Translations under genes and position numbers: made by a program
Assembly: GCA_944387445.1 (NCBI GenBank)
Contig: CALXEX010000002.1
Location: 28,290 to 92,289 of the forward strand
Length of the DNA stretch: 64,000 bases
DNA from: an uncultured Clostridia bacterium
GTDB taxonomy: Bacteria; Bacillota; Clostridia; TANB77; CAG-508
Reading direction: 5' to 3'
Notes under the pieces: generated by a model
The model's input: only the letters and a program-made list of their open reading frames with translations
The model's database searches: none
Told to the model about the DNA's origin: nothing
Part shown: piece after piece, positions 6,951-52,756 of the stretch
Numbering within the stretch: position 1 is the stretch's first letter
Layout of the letters: each line of letters starts with the position of its first letter

Positions 6951-7068
6951 TTTCTAAACATCCTTTCAACACGATATATCAATAGCTATATTATATATGT
7001 AAACATAGAATATTGCAATATTTTTTTGAGGTTTTATACCACTTGTTCAAACATTTCATTTTTGATAT

Positions 7069-7266
7069 CCCCTGTATAAGTTGTTATCATTTATAAATCA
7101 CCTGTTACGAATGTGATTGGAAAGCATACTAGAAAATTTTATTTAAAATAAATGAAGGAACCCGAATCCTTTTGGGGAGTGTCATTTATTTTAAATTAGA
7201 TTTTCTGTATGCTTGTATTAAGCCGAGTAACAGGTAATTTATAAATGATAACAACTTGTACAGGGG
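7069..7266. repeat. Rod-like hairpin element, copy A (see findings)
   Basis: 40-bp outer arms (2 mismatches), then 5' junction GAATGTGATTGGAA, a ~32-bp inner stem, a 26-nt apical loop and 3' junction TGTATTAAGCCGA. Confidence 0.7.
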
Positions 7267-7281
7267 CTAAGCAAAATCAAT

Positions 7282-7971
7282 CTATCTTATTATACAAATG
7301 GCACAAAAAATAAGTATTCCCATGAAAACATTGCATAGCAATGCATAATTCACACTTTTAATTCCAACATCATTTAATCGATCAAAATGATGTACTATAT
7401 TATCTATTTCATCTTGTGAAGATATTTTTTTATTTTCCATATATGCTTTTGCTAGAAATCTTGCTTTTATCATAGCATCATTTTCTAAGTAACTTCTTAT
7501 AAAATAATAAACACATCCTCCAATGATTAAAATTGATAAAAATACCATTTCATGTGAAAGTAGATGACATAGTTTTAAAATAGAAATGATAATAAAATAT
7601 AGTATGTAGATATTAGAATATATAAAATTAAATAATAATAGCTTTCTATCTTGAATTGAATGTAAACATTCATGTGCAATGGTTTGTATTCTTGTATAAC
7701 TATTTTTTACATCCGCTATCATAATTTTGTTTGAGATAGCTATGTATAAAGAATTTGTTGCATTTTTGTCTTCTTCTATGGTAACAGTTTCATTTTTTAA
7801 CATTTTTAAATATTCCTTACACATATCTATATTGACTGGATATTTTTCTGCCAATTCATCTAATGCTTCATCTTTAGCAATTGCTTCTATTTGTTTTTTA
7901 CTACTACCAACCAATATTCTTAATAAAACCATCATAAAAATTAAAAAAATAATGATTACTCCAAATTCCAT
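7282..7971 (-). CDS. Membrane protein with HExxH motif (putative zinc metallopeptidase)
   Basis: HECLH motif at IAHECLHSIQD plus several TM helices. Confidence 0.45.
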   Translation of the reverse strand: MEFGVIIIFLIFMMVLLRILVGSSKKQIEAIAKDEALDELAEKYPVNIDMCKEYLKMLKNETVTIEEDKNATNSLYIAISNKIMIADVKNSYTRIQTIAHECLHSIQDRKLLLFNFIYSNIYILYFIIISILKLCHLLSHEMVFLSILIIGGCVYYFIRSYLENDAMIKARFLAKAYMENKKISSQDEIDNIVHHFDRLNDVGIKSVNYALLCNVFMGILIFCAICIIR

Positions 7972-9553: not shown

Positions 9554-9635
9554 TTGTTCCTTACATTCCTTTCTTAATAAACAAATCCAGTTGAAAAAGT
9601 TTCAATTTTTCAACTGTATTCCTTCTTGTATTTTT

Positions 9636-25150: not shown

Positions 25151-25608
25151 GTTTTAACGCATTCCTTTCTTAAGGCTCAATCTTGGTTGGAAAAGAATAT
25201 ATTTTTCAACCACATTCCCCTTATTTCTTATTTAGGCTTTCTGGTTACCTATCCCCTTTTATGTATGTTTTATTTTGAATACTTATATTATATATGATTT
25301 TACTTATATTTTCAATCTTTTTATCATTTTTTCCTATACCAGGACAAATCTCGCTTCGAGAGAACTTTTCTCTACTTTCTAGCTCAACTATATATATTTA
25401 AGTTCTCGAAGAAGCGTAAAGATTTGTCGACGCGAAAAATTGCGTAGCAATTTTTTTGTGCAACTTTGTTTTTTGTGGTATAGGAAAATGGCTTTTTCCT
25501 ATACCACAAAAAAGCAGACTATCCAAATGAGGATAATCTGCTTTCTTTTCATATAAACTGAGGCACCTGCAAATGGGCAGGATTTTATCAGGTTCTTTTC
25601 CGAAGCCT

Positions 25609-25749: not shown

Positions 25750-26029
25750 TTTTTCTTCCTCCTTTATTTTAGGCTACTAACAGTTGTACAAAGAAAAACA
25801 GGCTAAAGAAACAGCCTCAGTTTATATATGAGGTGCTTACTTGCACCTATTTTTCAATGTACTGCAACCACTTTGGTTTGCACAGACTATATTATACCAC
25901 TTTCCTATAAGCTTTTCAAATTTTTTATCTAGGACTTGCTTATTTTTTCATTTTAGTATAATATAATAAAAGTAAATTAAACGTATGCAAAAAAATTCTT
26001 AAGAAAGGAGGGCAATATTTTATTCATAT

Positions 26030-26165
26030 ATAGCGCCTGGACACGATAGATTTGTGTTGACGAGGTTCAGGGTTATCGAAAAATTCGGCGGATGCTCTGA
26101 TGGCTTTCACTTATGGTCATAAGTATTAATGAAAAAGCAGTAGTGATACTGTAACAAAGGTTAAT
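26030..26165 (+). ncRNA. glmS ribozyme (GlcN6P-dependent self-cleaving leader)
   Basis: A^GCGCCTGGAC ... TTGACGAGGTTCAGGGTTATCGAAAAATTCGGCGGATGCTCTGATGGC matches the conserved glmS ribozyme core. Lies about 130 nt upstream of glmS. Confidence 0.85.
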
Positions 26166-26297
26166 ACATATAAGTTTTATTTGCATACCTTTAATTCCAA
26201 CAATCTCTTGTATCTTAGAGATATTATCAAAATTTAGCAAAAATAATTTAATATATTTATTTGTATATATTAAATTATTGAAATGGAGGATTATATT

Positions 26298-28139
26298 ATG
26301 TGTGGAATTGTAGGTTATATAGGAAAACAAAAAGCAAGTCCAATTTTAATCAATGGACTTTTAAGATTGGAATACAGAGGATATGACTCTGCAGGTATTT
26401 CAACAATTGAACCAGAAGGTTTGGTTGTTATGAAAGATAAAGGAAGAGTAAAAAATTTATATAATTTAAAAGGAATTGATGATTTAAAAGGTACCATTGG
26501 TATTGCACATACCAGATGGGCAACACATGGAAAACCATCTAAAGAAAATGCACACCCTCACCAAGATAATGCAAAAATGTTTAGTGTTGTTCATAATGGT
26601 ATTATTGAAAATTATAATGAATTAAGAAAATTTTTAATCGACAATGGATACAAATTCTATTCTGATACAGATACAGAAATTGTTCCAAATCTAATTCATT
26701 ACTATTATACAAAAGAAACAAAAGAAACAGGAAAAATGAAATTTTTAATAGCAGTAAAAAATGCATGTTCTGACTTAAAAGGAAGCTTTGCTTTAGAAAT
26801 TATTTGTAAAGATTTTCCTGACAATATGATTGTTGTTAGAAAAGATAGTCCATTAGTTATTGGAAAAGGAATTGATGAAAATTATATTTCTTCAGATATT
26901 CCAGCGATTCTTTCATTTACAAGAAACTTCTATCTTTTAAATGATTTTGAATATGTATTTTTATCAAGAGATTCTGCTGAGTTTTATGATAAAGATTTAA
27001 ATAAAATAGATAAAAAAACACAAAATATTGAATGGGATGCTGCTAGTAGTGAAAAAAATGGTTATGATGACTTTATGTTAAAAGAAATTCATGAGCAACC
27101 AACTGCTATTCGTGAAACAATAGGTGCTAAGTTTAGTGAAAATTCAAAATGTGAATTTGATGAATTACACTTTACAAAAGAATATTTATCAAAATTAAAT
27201 AAAATTTTTATTGTTGCTTGTGGTACAGCTATGCACGCTGGATTAGCTGGTAAAAATATTATAGAGAAACTTTGTAGGATTCCAACTGAGGTTGATATTG
27301 CTTCTGAATTTAGATACAGAGATCCATTAATAGATGATAAAACCTTATGTATTTTTATTTCTCAATCAGGAGAAACAGCAGATACCATTGCTGCATTAAA
27401 ATTATCAAAACAAAAAGGTGCCAAAACACTTGCAATTTCCAATGTAATTGGAAGTTCTATCACAAGAGAAGCAGATTATTCTATTTATACACATGCAGGG
27501 CCAGAAATCGCAGTTGCTTCTACAAAAGCATATACTTCACAAGTGGTTTTAATGGTAATTTTAGCAATTTATTTTGCTGAAATCTTGGGAAAAAGTTCTG
27601 AAGAACTATATGAATTGAAAAAAGAAATTTTAGACTTACCTGCTAAAATTGAGGAATGCTTAAAATTAGAAGATATTGTTAAACAATTTTCAAAAAGAAT
27701 TTATCAAGAAAAAGACATTTTCTTTATTGGTAGAGGTATTGATGAAACAGTTGCTAAAGAAGGTTCTCTAAAATTAAAAGAAATCTCATACATTCATTCA
27801 GAAAGTTATCCAGCAGGTGAATTAAAACATGGACCAATTGCTTTAATTGAAAAAGATATTACGGTTGTCGGTATTATGACAGAACCTACTTTGGTTGAAA
27901 AAACGGTTAGTAACCTTCAAGAGGTCATCACACGTGGTGCCAAAACCTTAATCATTACCAACCAAAAAATTGATAAATCTATGTTTGATACAGTATTAGA
28001 AATTCCTGAGATAAATCCATATATCTCACCAATCTTATCAGTTATTCCTTTGCAATTGTTGGCATATTACATTTCAAAGGAAAAAGGATTGGATGTTGAT
28101 AAGCCTAGAAACTTAGCAAAATCTGTTACTGTTGAATAA
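26298..28139 (+). CDS. glmS: Glutamine--fructose-6-phosphate aminotransferase
   Basis: Starts MCGIVGY (catalytic Cys2), followed by two SIS domains. The track start at 26283 is 5 codons too far upstream. Confidence 0.95.
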   Translation: MCGIVGYIGKQKASPILINGLLRLEYRGYDSAGISTIEPEGLVVMKDKGRVKNLYNLKGIDDLKGTIGIAHTRWATHGKPSKENAHPHQDNAKMFSVVHNGIIENYNELRKFLIDNGYKFYSDTDTEIVPNLIHYYYTKETKETGKMKFLIAVKNACSDLKGSFALEIICKDFPDNMIVVRKDSPLVIGKGIDENYISSDIPAILSFTRNFYLLNDFEYVFLSRDSAEFYDKDLNKIDKKTQNIEWDAASSEKNGYDDFMLKEIHEQPTAIRETIGAKFSENSKCEFDELHFTKEYLSKLNKIFIVACGTAMHAGLAGKNIIEKLCRIPTEVDIASEFRYRDPLIDDKTLCIFISQSGETADTIAALKLSKQKGAKTLAISNVIGSSITREADYSIYTHAGPEIAVASTKAYTSQVVLMVILAIYFAEILGKSSEELYELKKEILDLPAKIEECLKLEDIVKQFSKRIYQEKDIFFIGRGIDETVAKEGSLKLKEISYIHSESYPAGELKHGPIALIEKDITVVGIMTEPTLVEKTVSNLQEVITRGAKTLIITNQKIDKSMFDTVLEIPEINPYISPILSVIPLQLLAYYISKEKGLDVDKPRNLAKSVTVE

Positions 28140-29736: not shown

Positions 29737-29821
29737 AACTTTCCTCCTCGCCTTTTGCCATAATAGTATATTCCATTATCTTGCTTTTTATACTATCATT
29801 TTGTCCTATTGACCTTTTATT

Positions 29822-30082
29822 GTTACAGTTCACAGCTTAATCAATCCCCCTAGAGGCTTATGTTCTTCTAGATTGAATAAAATTTCGAATGTGATTGGAA
29901 AATAATTAGAAACTCTTGAATCATTTTATGGAAAATGTTCGCGTCGAGCGTAGCGAGGACTAAGTGAAAGGGTGCCATAAAATGATTTTAGAGTTTCTTA
30001 TTATTTGTATTGAGCCGAGAAATTTATGAAATCTAGAAAAACATAAGCCTCTAGGGGGATTGATTAAGCTGTGAATTGTAAC
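29822..30082. repeat. Rod-like hairpin element, copy C
   Basis: ~63-bp outer arms, the same junction strings (GAATGTGATTGGAA / TGTATTGAGCCGA), a different ~31-bp inner stem and a 43-nt apical loop. Flanked by the direct repeat CCTTTTATTG. Confidence 0.7.
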
Positions 30083-30189
30083 CCTTTTATTGAACAAAGT
30101 TAAATTATTTTAGCCAAAAGTCTTGTTTTTTTCGCTATTTTGTAGGATAATATATATGTATGATTATAAATTTTGAAAGGATATTTTAA

Positions 30190-47008: not shown

Positions 47009-49537
47009 CTAAAAACCTGCATGCCGAAATGCTTGTAATCTTTCAAGAACAGCATTATTTGGATGTCCAAACATATTATTTTCTCCTACGCCAATGATAG
47101 CTACTTTACTATTTACTGCTTTTAAAAATTCTTCTGTTGATGAGCTTTTAGAACCATGATGTGCTACTTTCAATACAGTTGCTTTTAACATATCTAAATG
47201 ATTTTTATAGGTATCTAAAATTTTCTTTTCTGCCACTTCTTCTATGTCGCCTGTAAATAGCATACTAAAACTTTTATATTGTAATTTCATAACCATGGCA
47301 TTATTATTTAATATGTTTTCTTCTATTTGCTTTTCCATTGGCCATAAGATATGGAAAGTCACTTCTCCTATTGTGATCTTATCACCTACCTTTACTTCTC
47401 TTACCTTTAAATTCTTTTCTTTTACAATTTCTAAAAATGTTTCATAGTTCTCGCTTTTTTCCTCCTGTTTTGTAATAAAAACTTGTCCTACTTTAAATTC
47501 TTCTAATATTGGCAATATACCACCTACATGGTCTTGGTCAAAATGGGAAATCAATATATAATCTAATTTTGTATATCCTTTATCTAATAAATAAGGAATT
47601 AGGGTGTCTTTTCCTACATCAAATGTGTTAGATGTACTTCCACCTCCATCAATTAAAATAGTTTTATGATTTGGTGTGATTATAAAACAAGAATCTCCTT
47701 GCCCTACATCTAAAAAATGAATTTCTAAATTTTTTGGAAATTGATAGATACCGACTAAAAAAACAATGAAAAAAATAACTTTGTATGTTTTTACAATAAA
47801 AACTTTTACATTTCTTTCTTTTAAAATTTTCTGATATATTTTCCTTATCTTTTTCTTTTTTTCATAAAGTTTATATTTCGCGAGTGCAATTAAATTTTTC
47901 ACTCTTGTTTTGGTAGGATTTATATATTGGCTAGTATAAATCCTATATATTTGATTTCCTATCAATATCGCAATGTAATAAATAATGATAAATAAGATAC
48001 TTGGTGTTGGTACATATATTTTCGAAAATGGTAAATTCGCTAAATTCGAAATTTGTATGAAACATTTAATACCTAATGATAAAAAGATAGAGATAAACTG
48101 CGAAATTTGTAACTGTATAAATGAGCTAAAGACAAAAATAACGGATAAAAACATGATGGGAACAGTCACGATACTGACCAAAATATTGGTTATCACGAAA
48201 TAGATTCCTATCATATTAAAATGATAAAGCATAACTGGAAGAATCATCAGTTGTGCAGAAAGTGTAACGGCTATCATATCTTTCAAATTTTCTACTATTT
48301 GGGAAATTCGTTTACTTCTTTTTATGGATATATTATTTTTTATCCATTTTATATTATCAAAATACTGCTTTATGCTTTTATTGAATAAAATAATTCCTAT
48401 TGTACCTAAATAAGATAATTGTAATCCCACACCTGTAATGGCATAAGGATTTTGGATTAAAATAATTCCTAAAGAAATAGCAATAGATGTCCATATATCA
48501 TTTTTTCTATATACTAAAAATGCGACTATATTCATCATTCCCATGATTCCTGCTCTGACAATTGAACTCGTATATCCTGTTAAAGCCATATAAAATACCA
48601 ATCCAATGATAACTACATATTTTACATATCTTTTTCCTAACCATTTTTTAAAAAACATTTCTATTCCCATTATGATATAAATAATATGCATACCAGATAC
48701 TGCTAAAACATGAGAAATATTGGCTATTTGAAATTTTTCTTTTAACTCTTCGTCTAATGCTGTTGTATCTCCTAAAATTAATCCTTTTACAATTTGCTGT
48801 TCTTGCTCTTCTAATAAGTTTTCAATATTTTGGCTAATAACTAACTTTATATCATTCATACTTTTTTCAAACCAATTTGCATTATCTGAAGATATTTTTT
48901 TGTAGTTTTCAACTTTTAAAGTACCATATATATGAATGGATTTTAGATATAACTGATAATCAAACCCTCCTGTATTTCTTTGTTTACTCCCCTTTCGAAA
49001 TTCTCCTTGCAACATCACCTTATCTCCATATTGAAAGGAAATATCTTTTTTTACTTCTATATACATTTGTGTAGATTGATATTTATCAGATGAATTTACT
49101 GTTAATACGTTTAGTTTATATCGGTTTTTATATTCTCTTTCTTCTTGATTACTGACAATAATTCCTTCTACGATAATATTTTCTTCAGGATATAGATTTT
49201 CATATTTTTTTTCTTGAAATATAAGAATTGTATTTGAAATAATAGAACTAATGGTCATGAAACAAATAACTTGTTTTGTGAAAATTAATTTGATATATCG
49301 AACATATCGATGAATTGAAAATAATTGAAAAGATGTATTCTTTTTACTTTTAAAACACTTTCTAAAAAAATTAGACAAAAGCGACATGATTGAATTTTTT
49401 TGATTTTTCTTATAAAACAATATAGCTATTAGGATATATAAAAGGACTATACTAAAATGAAAGTATAGCCCCCATATAATTCCAATAATATATCCTATAA
49501 CTATAACGACAATTGGTCTTTTCAAATTTGCTATCAT
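47009..49537 (-). CDS. comEC: DNA internalization competence protein ComEC/Rec2 (3' end apparently frameshifted near 47026)
   Basis: Polytopic competence domain plus a C-terminal metallo-beta-lactamase domain (HFDQDHVGG). The expected C-terminus GMQVFRTDENGEISISVNRKGKVRVRKFIEKYSN continues in another frame to about 46925. Confidence 0.85.
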   Translation of the reverse strand: MIANLKRPIVVIVIGYIIGIIWGLYFHFSIVLLYILIAILFYKKNQKNSIMSLLSNFFRKCFKSKKNTSFQLFSIHRYVRYIKLIFTKQVICFMTISSIISNTILIFQEKKYENLYPEENIIVEGIIVSNQEEREYKNRYKLNVLTVNSSDKYQSTQMYIEVKKDISFQYGDKVMLQGEFRKGSKQRNTGGFDYQLYLKSIHIYGTLKVENYKKISSDNANWFEKSMNDIKLVISQNIENLLEEQEQQIVKGLILGDTTALDEELKEKFQIANISHVLAVSGMHIIYIIMGIEMFFKKWLGKRYVKYVVIIGLVFYMALTGYTSSIVRAGIMGMMNIVAFLVYRKNDIWTSIAISLGIILIQNPYAITGVGLQLSYLGTIGIILFNKSIKQYFDNIKWIKNNISIKRSKRISQIVENLKDMIAVTLSAQLMILPVMLYHFNMIGIYFVITNILVSIVTVPIMFLSVIFVFSSFIQLQISQFISIFLSLGIKCFIQISNLANLPFSKIYVPTPSILFIIIYYIAILIGNQIYRIYTSQYINPTKTRVKNLIALAKYKLYEKKKKIRKIYQKILKERNVKVFIVKTYKVIFFIVFLVGIYQFPKNLEIHFLDVGQGDSCFIITPNHKTILIDGGGSTSNTFDVGKDTLIPYLLDKGYTKLDYILISHFDQDHVGGILPILEEFKVGQVFITKQEEKSENYETFLEIVKEKNLKVREVKVGDKITIGEVTFHILWPMEKQIEENILNNNAMVMKLQYKSFSMLFTGDIEEVAEKKILDTYKNHLDMLKATVLKVAHHGSKSSSTEEFLKAVNSKVAIIGVGENNMFGHPNNAVLERLQAFRHAGF

Positions 49538-49603
49538 TCCTTCCTAAAGCTTAAACCTAGATTGGAAAAGAATTAAATTTTCAACCCTTATCTTCCAATT
49601 TCA

Positions 49604-51425: not shown

Positions 51426-51510
51426 ATTATCACTTCTCCTTCATTGGTAAATATAACATTATGAGTTTCATTTGTCAATACATTTTTTTACATAATAGTA
51501 AAAATTAAGT

Positions 51511-51731
51511 TTTTTCTTCATCCTATGTGCCAGTCAGAGGTATTTCTAAACTATTTCATTACGAATGTGATTGGAAAGCATATTAGAAAATTTTATTTAA
51601 AATAAATGAAGGAACCCGAATCCTTTTGGGGAGTGTCATTTATTTTAAATTAGATTTTCTATATGCTTGTATTGAACCGAGTAATAAATAGTTTAGGAAT
51701 ACCTCTGACTGGCACATAGGATGAAGAAAAA
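51511..51731. repeat. Rod-like hairpin element, copy B
   Basis: ~50-bp outer arms unrelated to those of copy A. The inner core is nearly identical to copy A. Confidence 0.7.
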
Positions 51732-51736
51732 CTTCA

Positions 51737-52756
51737 CTAATTTTCCATACTTTTTAACGCATACGTATTATTAACAATTTTATCATAAGGTGCTGGATTT
51801 TCTAGTTCTCCAGCTAATGTCATAACTTCTTGAAGTCTATTAAAACTTTCCTCTTCTAATACAGGTGTTTCATTCCATGCATCAATATCTTTATATGTTT
51901 GTATTGCCTCTGTTAACATCTCAATTCCCGTGTCTGGGAAAAAGTCTTGTATAACTGTTGCAATTTCTTCTGCTGTATGTTCTTTTACCCATGTCTGCCC
52001 TTTATAAATCGCGTCTGTAAAGTTTTGAATAATCTCTTCATTTGCCTCAATATAACTTTTTTTAGCAAAATATGCTGTATATGGTATTTCTCCTGCCTCT
52101 TCTCCAACTGATGCCACAACATATCCTTTTCCCTCTTGCTCTGTTAAAGAAGCCGTTGGCTCAAATAAGGTCACATAGTCAGCATTTCCAGCTGTAAAAG
52201 CACCTGCCATTAAGTCAAATTTAATACTATCATCTAATACCACATCTGTTTCTGGATTGATTCCATTCTTTTTTAGTACATATTCTAATGTCATATATGG
52301 TACGCCACCTTTTCTTCCAGGAATAACGGTTTTACCCTTTAAATTTTCCCAGCTGAAGTCTTCTTCATTTGTTCTAGAAACTAATAATGACCCATCTTTT
52401 TTCGTTACTTGTGCAAATACTTCTGTATAATCTTCTTTTCCTTCATTATATACATATATAGATGCTTCTGGACCTGCAAATCCAATTTCTACTTGATTTG
52501 CTAATACACTTGTCATAACAGCATCTGCCCCTTGACCAGTAGATAATTCTATTTCTAGCCCTTTTTCTTCAAAGTATCCATTACTGATTGCTACATATTG
52601 TGGTGCATAAAAGACAGAACGGGTTACTTCACTAACATTGATGGTTTGTAAATTATTTTGACTGTTTCCTGTTTGACGTTTTATAACCACAACAACAATC
52701 ACAATTGCAATTACTAAGATTACGCATGCTAGCACAATTTTTCGTTTTTTACTCAT
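51737..52756 (-). CDS. ABC transporter substrate-binding lipoprotein (NMT1/THI5, sulfonate/nitrate/taurine type)
   Basis: N-terminal anchor and a typical NMT1-like sequence (YAPQYVAISNGYFEEKGLEIEL). Confidence 0.8.
   Translation of the reverse strand: MSKKRKIVLACVILVIAIVIVVVVIKRQTGNSQNNLQTINVSEVTRSVFYAPQYVAISNGYFEEKGLEIELSTGQGADAVMTSVLANQVEIGFAGPEASIYVYNEGKEDYTEVFAQVTKKDGSLLVSRTNEEDFSWENLKGKTVIPGRKGGVPYMTLEYVLKKNGINPETDVVLDDSIKFDLMAGAFTAGNADYVTLFEPTASLTEQEGKGYVVASVGEEAGEIPYTAYFAKKSYIEANEEIIQNFTDAIYKGQTWVKEHTAEEIATVIQDFFPDTGIEMLTEAIQTYKDIDAWNETPVLEEESFNRLQEVMTLAGELENPAPYDKIVNNTYALKSMEN

Follow-up and report, generated by a model that had tools for sequence, protein, structure and literature searches.

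The window, that is, the whole 64,000-nucleotide stretch of DNA analysed here, belongs to a MAG (G000) of 1.8 Mb in 69 contigs that is 80% complete and has a G+C content of 28.6%. It contains two long intergenic hairpins, copies A and B, each with its adjoining genes on the opposite strand, and a third copy, C, of a different type; in a Pfam scan, the six genes flanking A, B and C were assigned to TetR, XRE, an NMT1-like binding protein, DUF2508 and a TraG-like protein, with one left without assignment. Copy B (51509-51737, + strand, like all its parts and those of A) is an inserted unit of 229 bp between TAA trinucleotides at 51506-51508 and 51738-51740, as delimited by comparison with empty sites and by its fold; its last base falls in the TAG stop codon of the gene at 51737-52756 (- strand). 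Its left arm (51509-51561) consists, from outside to inside, of a degenerate terminal repeat (GTTTTTTCTTCATCC), a hypervariable block (TATGTGCCAGTCAGAGG) and a conserved proximal part (TATTTCTAAACTATTTCATTA), as aligned with loci L179, L177 and L178 and with the orthologue of A; its core (51562-51681) comprises a 5' junction (CGAATGTGATTGG), an inner stem with UAGAA, an apex and a 3' junction (GTATTGAACCGAG); and its right arm (51682-51737) mirrors the left, with 98% complementarity over an inverted repeat of 46 nt. Copy A is a complete hairpin element at 7055-7280, with its core at 7108-7227 and a right arm (7228-7280) that mirrors the left; its arms form an inverted repeat of 54 nt at 87%, or 95% over the inner 39 nt, and the outermost 14 nt of either arm are only loosely complementary. 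As RNA, B folds with -122 kcal/mol (z = -18) and A with -104 kcal/mol (z = -16).

The cores of A and B, 120 nt each, are 96.7% identical, with four differences (A versus B: C/T at core position 22, G/A at 100, A/G at 113 and G/A at 115), and positions 22 and 100 form a compensatory pair. An initial sequence-only reading of the window had pointed out both the near-identity of the cores and the compensatory change in the inner stem, and both hold. The same reading took the core to be a fixed unit of about 115 nt, which is right as to its constancy but too narrow as to its extent: the conserved unit is larger, and its junction motifs CGAATGTGATTGG and GTATTGARCCGAG are found also in copy C, in at least 18 copies in the genome and in hundreds in the genus.

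Copy C (29822-30083, + strand) is a complete MITE with terminal repeats GTTACAGTTCACAGC.../...GCTGTGAATTGTAAC around a core of another type (134 nt, 29886-30019), and is bounded by a target-site duplication at 29813-29821 and again at 30084-30092 (CCTTTTATT, read directly from the sequence and also written CCTTTTAT(T)). It has only the two 13-nt junction motifs CGAATGTGATTGG and GTATTGARCCGAG in common with A and B, its inner stem and arms being different. In all, G000 carries 18 strong and about 7 weaker copies. A covariance model built on the core (R1), against which the core of B scores 131.5 bits, finds matches in 26 of 37 genomes of the genus, with 1 to more than 40 copies each, and none in 24 genomes of other genera in the order; an exact-pattern scan of species-representative genomes yielded 118 loci, all in MAGs of uncultured gut Clostridia (from humans, chickens, mice, rabbits and ruminants). 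A search of Rfam 15 identified no family at either the gathering or a permissive threshold; the hits were generic long-hairpin matches, scoring far below threshold, to models of plant miRNA precursors. None of 144 copies (G000 and fetched loci) lies in the interior of an ORF. Between co-directional genes, the folded sense, which carries the G.U wobbles, is antisense to its neighbours in 59 cases and sense in 26; a core RNA would therefore need its own promoter. An outward sigma-70 promoter, with TTGARC supplied by the 3' junction and TATRAAT by the proximal arm, was considered and rejected, as a consensus scan finds none at A, B or C; a small ORF behind the G-rich block was likewise dismissed, being not conserved among copies. 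At G000 C19:30831-30889 there is a mini-derivative in which the inner hairpin is gone while both junction motifs and long arms are retained (CGAATGTAATTGGAGAATGATTAGAAATTCATATTGAGCCGAG).

Both A and B belong to a family of palindromic transposable elements without coding capacity (MITEs), with termini of the IS66-type single-ORF transposase elements. Termini in the family follow GTTAC(A/T)(A/G)TTCAG...; copies end in GTTACAATTCA..., and C and its relatives end in GTTACAATTCACAGC. Target duplications of 8 bp flank C and at least three other copies in G000 (in the latter, TTCCTATA, AATTTCTA and AAAAAGGG); the flanks of A hold no recognisable duplication and those of B only the 3-bp TAA repeat, and both copies have degenerate termini. 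The IS66 DDE transposase domain (PF03050) occurs in 5 of 61 genomes of the genus, and by this domain autonomous ISs were located in other genomes only, namely complete single-ORF IS66-family ISs of 1.5-1.7 kb in G009 (L168:1356-3027, G009:C90; 1672 bp, with a PF03050 ORF of 496 aa and termini GTTACTGTTCAGACTAG) and in G067 (L171:1196-2739, G067:C46). Their 27-bp termini start with GTTACTGTTCAG and follow the pattern GTTACTGTTCAG(A/C)CTAG, and their 8-bp duplications are ATAAAATC and TTTATTTA. No IS66 transposase was found by PF03050 in G000, as far as this 80%-complete MAG shows, most genomes with many copies show no transposase, and a search by GTTAC terminus for an autonomous IS in G000 and 118 related loci returned chance pairs only; R1 has no match on the IS66-family IS, from which the core is absent. 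The common termini and the length of the duplications suggest that the transposase that moved A and B was of the IS66 family.

The closest known kind of element is accordingly a MITE of an IS66-family (single-ORF, ISBst12-like) IS: both are short and non-coding, with matching terminal inverted repeats in the same genus and, for some of the copies here, 8-bp duplications, and both are multi-copy and patchy, with presence and absence at orthologous sites. What is unusual here is the structured centre, a conserved module folded strand-specifically rather than a deleted IS; the decayed ends of many copies, A and B included, which lack the 8-bp duplication; the nesting; and the mirrored hypervariable block. 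Hairpin-forming MITEs such as Correia/NEMIS of Neisseria, ERIC/IRU of enterobacteria and RUP/BOX of pneumococcus have conserved ends and an unremarkable interior. These too are intergenic palindromes of 100-250 bp beside gene ends, able to fold as long RNA hairpins, whereas in the present family conservation is highest at the centre, a mirrored hypervariable block is found in the arms and copies nest in the apex. Unlike REPIN/RAYT-type repeats, the family does not co-occur with a Y1 (HUH) transposase; a link to RAYT/Y1 was rejected, since PF01797 is found in genomes with and without the element, and also in other genera lacking it, with no correlation. Weak PF01797 Y1 (HUH) proteins of 250-290 aa are present in 1-5 copies per genome in most genomes of the order (for example G000 C23:19979-20305).

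Comparison with related genomes shows how B arrived. In its four closest species (G070, G010, G061 and G068), found via the adjacent binding-protein gene (86-92% amino-acid identity), the site is empty and reads ...GGAAATTAA joined directly to TTTTTACTAAC..., with neither palindrome nor arm sequence; in G000, the stop codon is interrupted by the whole 229-bp hairpin and now reads TAG, and TAA stands on either side of the insert. The arms of B therefore came in with the element. At the A site, G070 and G010 have no element and no arm sequence. One of the explanations first proposed for the variable arms, that a conserved core inserts into pre-existing long palindromes, therefore fails for both A and B. 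A general change of stop codons from TAA to TAG by insertion was also rejected, as it is seen at B only; at the orthologue of A, TAA is still in place although the element is there. The genomes considered here carry several palindromic MITE families at gene ends. At the A site of G061 (L040, G061:C68), with the gene orthologous to that at 7282-7971 lying upstream, there is an unrelated coreless MITE of 82 bp that has the same GTTAC termini (GTTACAATTCACAG) and an 8-bp duplication (AATACATA), the subterminal parts of which resemble copy c11 (G000 C17:35700-35934); and at one intergenic site common to L043 (G014) and L044 (G001) there is another unrelated palindromic repeat, rich in GGGACGG / CCGTCCC.

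A variant of the insertion hypothesis is that the core with short arms is mobile and lands in the centre of existing palindromes (other MITEs), such that the arms of different copies are halves of different hosts. Nesting does take place in the family, at copies other than A and B: copy c17 (G000 C29:9230-9560) lies inside the apex loop of a second hairpin family, and many copies with arms of 150-200 nt are nested in the apex of that family or of an oppositely oriented core-bearing element, the long arms being the halves of these hosts. The second family, of about 200 nt (G000 C11:19400-19620, C10:4850-5060, C13:47720-47920, C24:6840-7050 and C30:18040-18270; termini AAAAAATATAGAATATAAA), has the inner stem and apex in common with the A/B family (UAGAA...UGAGGAAUGUUCA[hairpin]UGAAAGAGGCGCA) and a different junction. 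In addition, arm types X, V and C each occur with several core clusters, and vice versa; since arm types and core clusters combine freely, arms and cores have reticulate histories. At the site of a filled palindrome in G001, the palindrome of G014 is coreless; this would also fit, but is best read, more simply, as the G001 state after loss of the segment between its 5-bp direct repeats (AAAAT) by deletion. Against nesting as the origin of the arms of A and B are the B site empty of any palindrome in four species, the lack of arm sequence in relatives without A, and the fact that the arms of A and B can be aligned, both mutually and to ordinary arms of the family (see below); moreover, it leaves a change in situ of the right arm of A unexplained. 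Nesting is thus a doubtful explanation of the arms at these two sites.

The core, for its part, has been selected as a fold. An alignment of 71 core sequences has 92% of its cells paired and compensatory changes in 34 of 37 pairs; its covariation score of 0.68 compares with 0.19 in shuffled and no more than 0.15 in slid controls. Covariation by itself could also stem from copying between arms. The inner stem, however, read in the + sense, has 98 G.T wobbles versus 11 A.C mismatches (13 versus 1 with one representative per core cluster), and the arms have 131 versus 192; this strand-specific excess in the inner stem and not in the arms implies that the core is selected as a single-strand fold in one sense, and the arms are not. 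Orthologous cores are 97-100% identical in surrounding DNA that is 88-92% identical. The active form of the core is probably RNA rather than single-stranded DNA.

The ssoA/palA single-strand origins of rolling-circle plasmids, with their motifs RSB (TTATGCCGAGAAAATTT) and CS-6 (TAGCGT) (PMC4598088, PMC5703833), are hairpins of about 120-160 nt that work in one orientation only. The present family has GCCGAG (in copy C, GCCGAGAAATTTAT) and a partner ATTGGAA at the loop-distal base, and many of its core types have TAGCGA near the apex, as does ssoA of pT181 and pE194. In contrast to ssoA/palA, the basal motifs are in reverse order (ATTGG 5' and GCCGAG 3'), the apex of A and B lacks TAGCG (CS-6), and the copies are chromosomal and numerous. 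A blastn search of 72,556 plasmids gave no match to the element, and R1 found nothing on pT181 or pE194. Identity with ssoA was therefore rejected, because the motifs are only partly common and permuted in order and there is no BLAST or covariance-model similarity; on these comparisons, the likeness appears to be a resemblance only.

The arms of A and B were at first described as completely different and impossible to align. Their pairwise identity is indeed low (44% for the left arms and 48% for the right), but they align over their full length through intermediates from other genomes. The arm of B aligns end to end with arms in other species, such as that of L179 (GTCTTTACTGTTCTGACCTATGTGCACAAGTGGGAAGTATTTATAAATTATTTAATTA), and L177 and L178 have an intact terminus (GTTACAGTTCAGACC). 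A six-row alignment that includes the orthologue of A yields a common frame, CC.TGT..AGT......ATT..TAAA......TTA, and a plan that starts on the outside with an IS66-type terminal inverted repeat (GTTAC...), goes on to a hypervariable block and ends, next to the core, in a proximal part that is conserved; the arm of A also fits this plan.

The hypervariable block is seen most clearly in five copies of one MAG, the cores of which are 98.8% identical, with terminal and proximal arm parts that are mostly at least 90% identical; between these parts is a block of about 16 nt that is 0-40% identical among the copies, yet equal on both arms of each. The block is purine-rich in the strand read inward, and no donor copies with the same block were seen. 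It apparently diverges faster than the flanks, and simple relaxation of constraint does not fully account for its rate. General hypermutation of the arms was rejected, because in clear orthologous pairs the arms outside the block are conserved like the flanks or better. Conceivably, the centre represents a novel structured-RNA class or else a DNA hairpin resembling a single-strand origin (with RSB- and CS-6-like motifs), that has spread on MITEs, with the block actively diversified to give each copy a private functional duplex, for instance for discrimination of self from non-self or as a processed small RNA; we consider this improbable.

How two arms come to change together is indicated by the orthologue of A in a chicken-gut MAG (L053, identical with L176), which shares both its flanks with A and matches the core of A at 96.7% identity. 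Its left arm is A-like and its right arm is B-like over the full 51 nt, its own two arms being just 56% alike. The right arm of A, mirrored, has an identity of 0.77 to the left arm of A (95% over the inner 39 nt) and 0.60 to the right arm of the orthologue, which in turn has an identity of 0.66 to that of B. Since the right arm is B-like in the orthologue and mirrors the left arm in G000, one arm of A was overwritten from the other after the species split; comparison of the two aligned loci thus shows that, in this lineage, the right arm of A was overwritten by the mirror of its left arm.

The same process is discernible at other orthologous loci. Between L063 and L077 there are 15 mirrored, 13 left-only and 4 right-only differences, and across L063, L077 and L150, where the flanks are about 92% identical (88-92% over kilobases), mirrored differences number 13-15; chance alone would give about 0.4. 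These differences are concentrated in a single 22-nt block and include a 3-nt indel in both arms (GAGCAGTGGTGGGATGATCCCC versus GTCCAGTGGCGG, a 3-nt gap and ATTCACAC). Thus, the initial statement that point mutation cannot produce such a pattern is correct for independent mutation. When copies with a core identity of 93% or more are compared (265 pairs), the arms are alike to the tip in 137 pairs and in the proximal part only in 115, and the end of arm similarity is equidistant from the core on both arms (r = 0.91). The companion proposal, that arms are swapped or acquired as units with both halves replaced together, survives in part: one whole arm of A has been replaced by the mirror of the other, and types of arm and core have been re-assorted.

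Template switching is known to homogenise and expand the arms of inverted repeats (PMC7202029; PMC8604942; PMC13100816), and copying by this route would be the simplest mechanism for the arm patterns. As in quasi-palindrome template-switch mutation, where a change in one arm is copied to the other and the arms are made perfect and can lengthen, the right arm of A and the mirrored differences look like copies of the opposite arm; unlike that process, which has been described for short repeats and single events, copying here would have been repeated on arms of 40-200 bp throughout a family. By sequence data, templated conversion is not distinguishable from strong selection for pairing. Under such compensatory evolution, the arms would be kept paired by selection, as a dsRNA stem or a transposition hairpin, through independent pairs of mutations and with no copying; nearly all copies do keep their arms paired, and the stems of the core clearly change by compensatory substitution. 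However, the arms show no excess of G.T over A.C (131 versus 192, given above) as expected of a selected single-strand fold, the right arm of A changed as a single tract of more than 25 nt, a 3-nt indel is mirrored in both arms, and the orthologue of A survives with arms of little likeness (56%). Selection for pairing without copying is consequently an unlikely source of the arm patterns.

Because one arm is most likely copied onto the other, the system is not guide-RNA-like, despite the likeness that the sequence-only reading had seen between a programmable duplex on a fixed scaffold and guide-bearing RNAs. According to that suggestion, the variable duplex would be a programmable specificity segment, as in omega RNA, bridge RNA or crRNA, and in this family a conserved scaffold does adjoin a short hypervariable block, no two copies having the same block even in a single genome, and the core acts as a structured single strand. 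The block, however, is always paired with its own complement, and no other place in the genome matches it better than chance would allow: for A, B and other unique copies, the only sequence that an arm matches, in the genome or in 2.8 Mb of related loci, is its own partner. (A snap-back or donor-flank origin of the distal arms was rejected as well, since no second genomic match exists for the arms of A and B or for those of four further unique copies.) Nor was any nuclease or recombinase found in the Pfam scan of the six genes adjoining A, B and C, which detected no TnpB, IscB, IS110 recombinase or Cas; there is no Rfam match, the arms are without the wobble signature, and they end in transposase-type repeats with target duplications. 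A guide function is thus highly improbable.

That the palindromic arms are fold-back chimeras introduced by the assembler, a possibility raised from the start, deserves mention since G000 is a MAG and misassembly is known to arise at long palindromes. Yet the elements lie inside long contigs (A and B within one of 93 kb) and recur in MAGs of many independent studies and assemblers, partly at orthologous sites, and for these reasons an artefact is unlikely; orthologous copies also agree between independent assemblies, and both target duplications and empty sites are clean. The chance that the arms are artefactual is close to nil.

The account that we consider probable, with appreciable room for doubt, is that of a MITE with a core selected for its fold and with arms that diverge and are homogenised by arm-to-arm copying. 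The arms would be DNA-level inverted repeats under little constraint outside the transposase-binding tips and the core-proximal part, and would for that reason diverge fast. A change in one arm, whether by mutation, deletion or recombination, would be copied to the other by intramolecular template switching during replication, and such quasi-palindrome correction would homogenise the arms and could extend them. Correction within each copy would then give a near-perfect private duplex, and hence the appearance in A and B of a common core with seemingly unrelated arms. Meanwhile, purifying selection on the fold would keep the cores almost identical, and apex nesting of hairpins, together with recombination, would re-assort arms and cores further.

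This account turns a seemingly exotic pattern, the same scaffold with unrelated duplexes, into a testable proposal: a transposable hairpin with a fold-selected centre and arms copied onto each other. If it is true, the family is a natural many-copy record of quasi-palindrome homogenisation on arms of 40-200 bp, a process so far studied mostly with reporter constructs. Its centre is an uncatalogued structured module with hundreds of copies in uncultured gut Clostridia, conserved above the surrounding genes. For annotation, long perfect palindromes beside gene ends in these genomes should be taken as mobile elements rather than as native terminators or operators.

Two other non-coding features were observed in the window. 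A glmS ribozyme/riboswitch (26021-26177, + strand, 94.7 bits) lies directly upstream of a 618-aa ORF (26283-28139). A motif of 52-59 nt (CATTCCTTTCTTAA...TTGAAAAAG...TTTTTCAAC) is found at three intergenic sites (9564-9622, 25160-25218 and 49535-49586), the copies being 71-79% identical to the reference; the minus strand reads as a terminator-like hairpin with a ribosome-binding site and then a start codon behind it.
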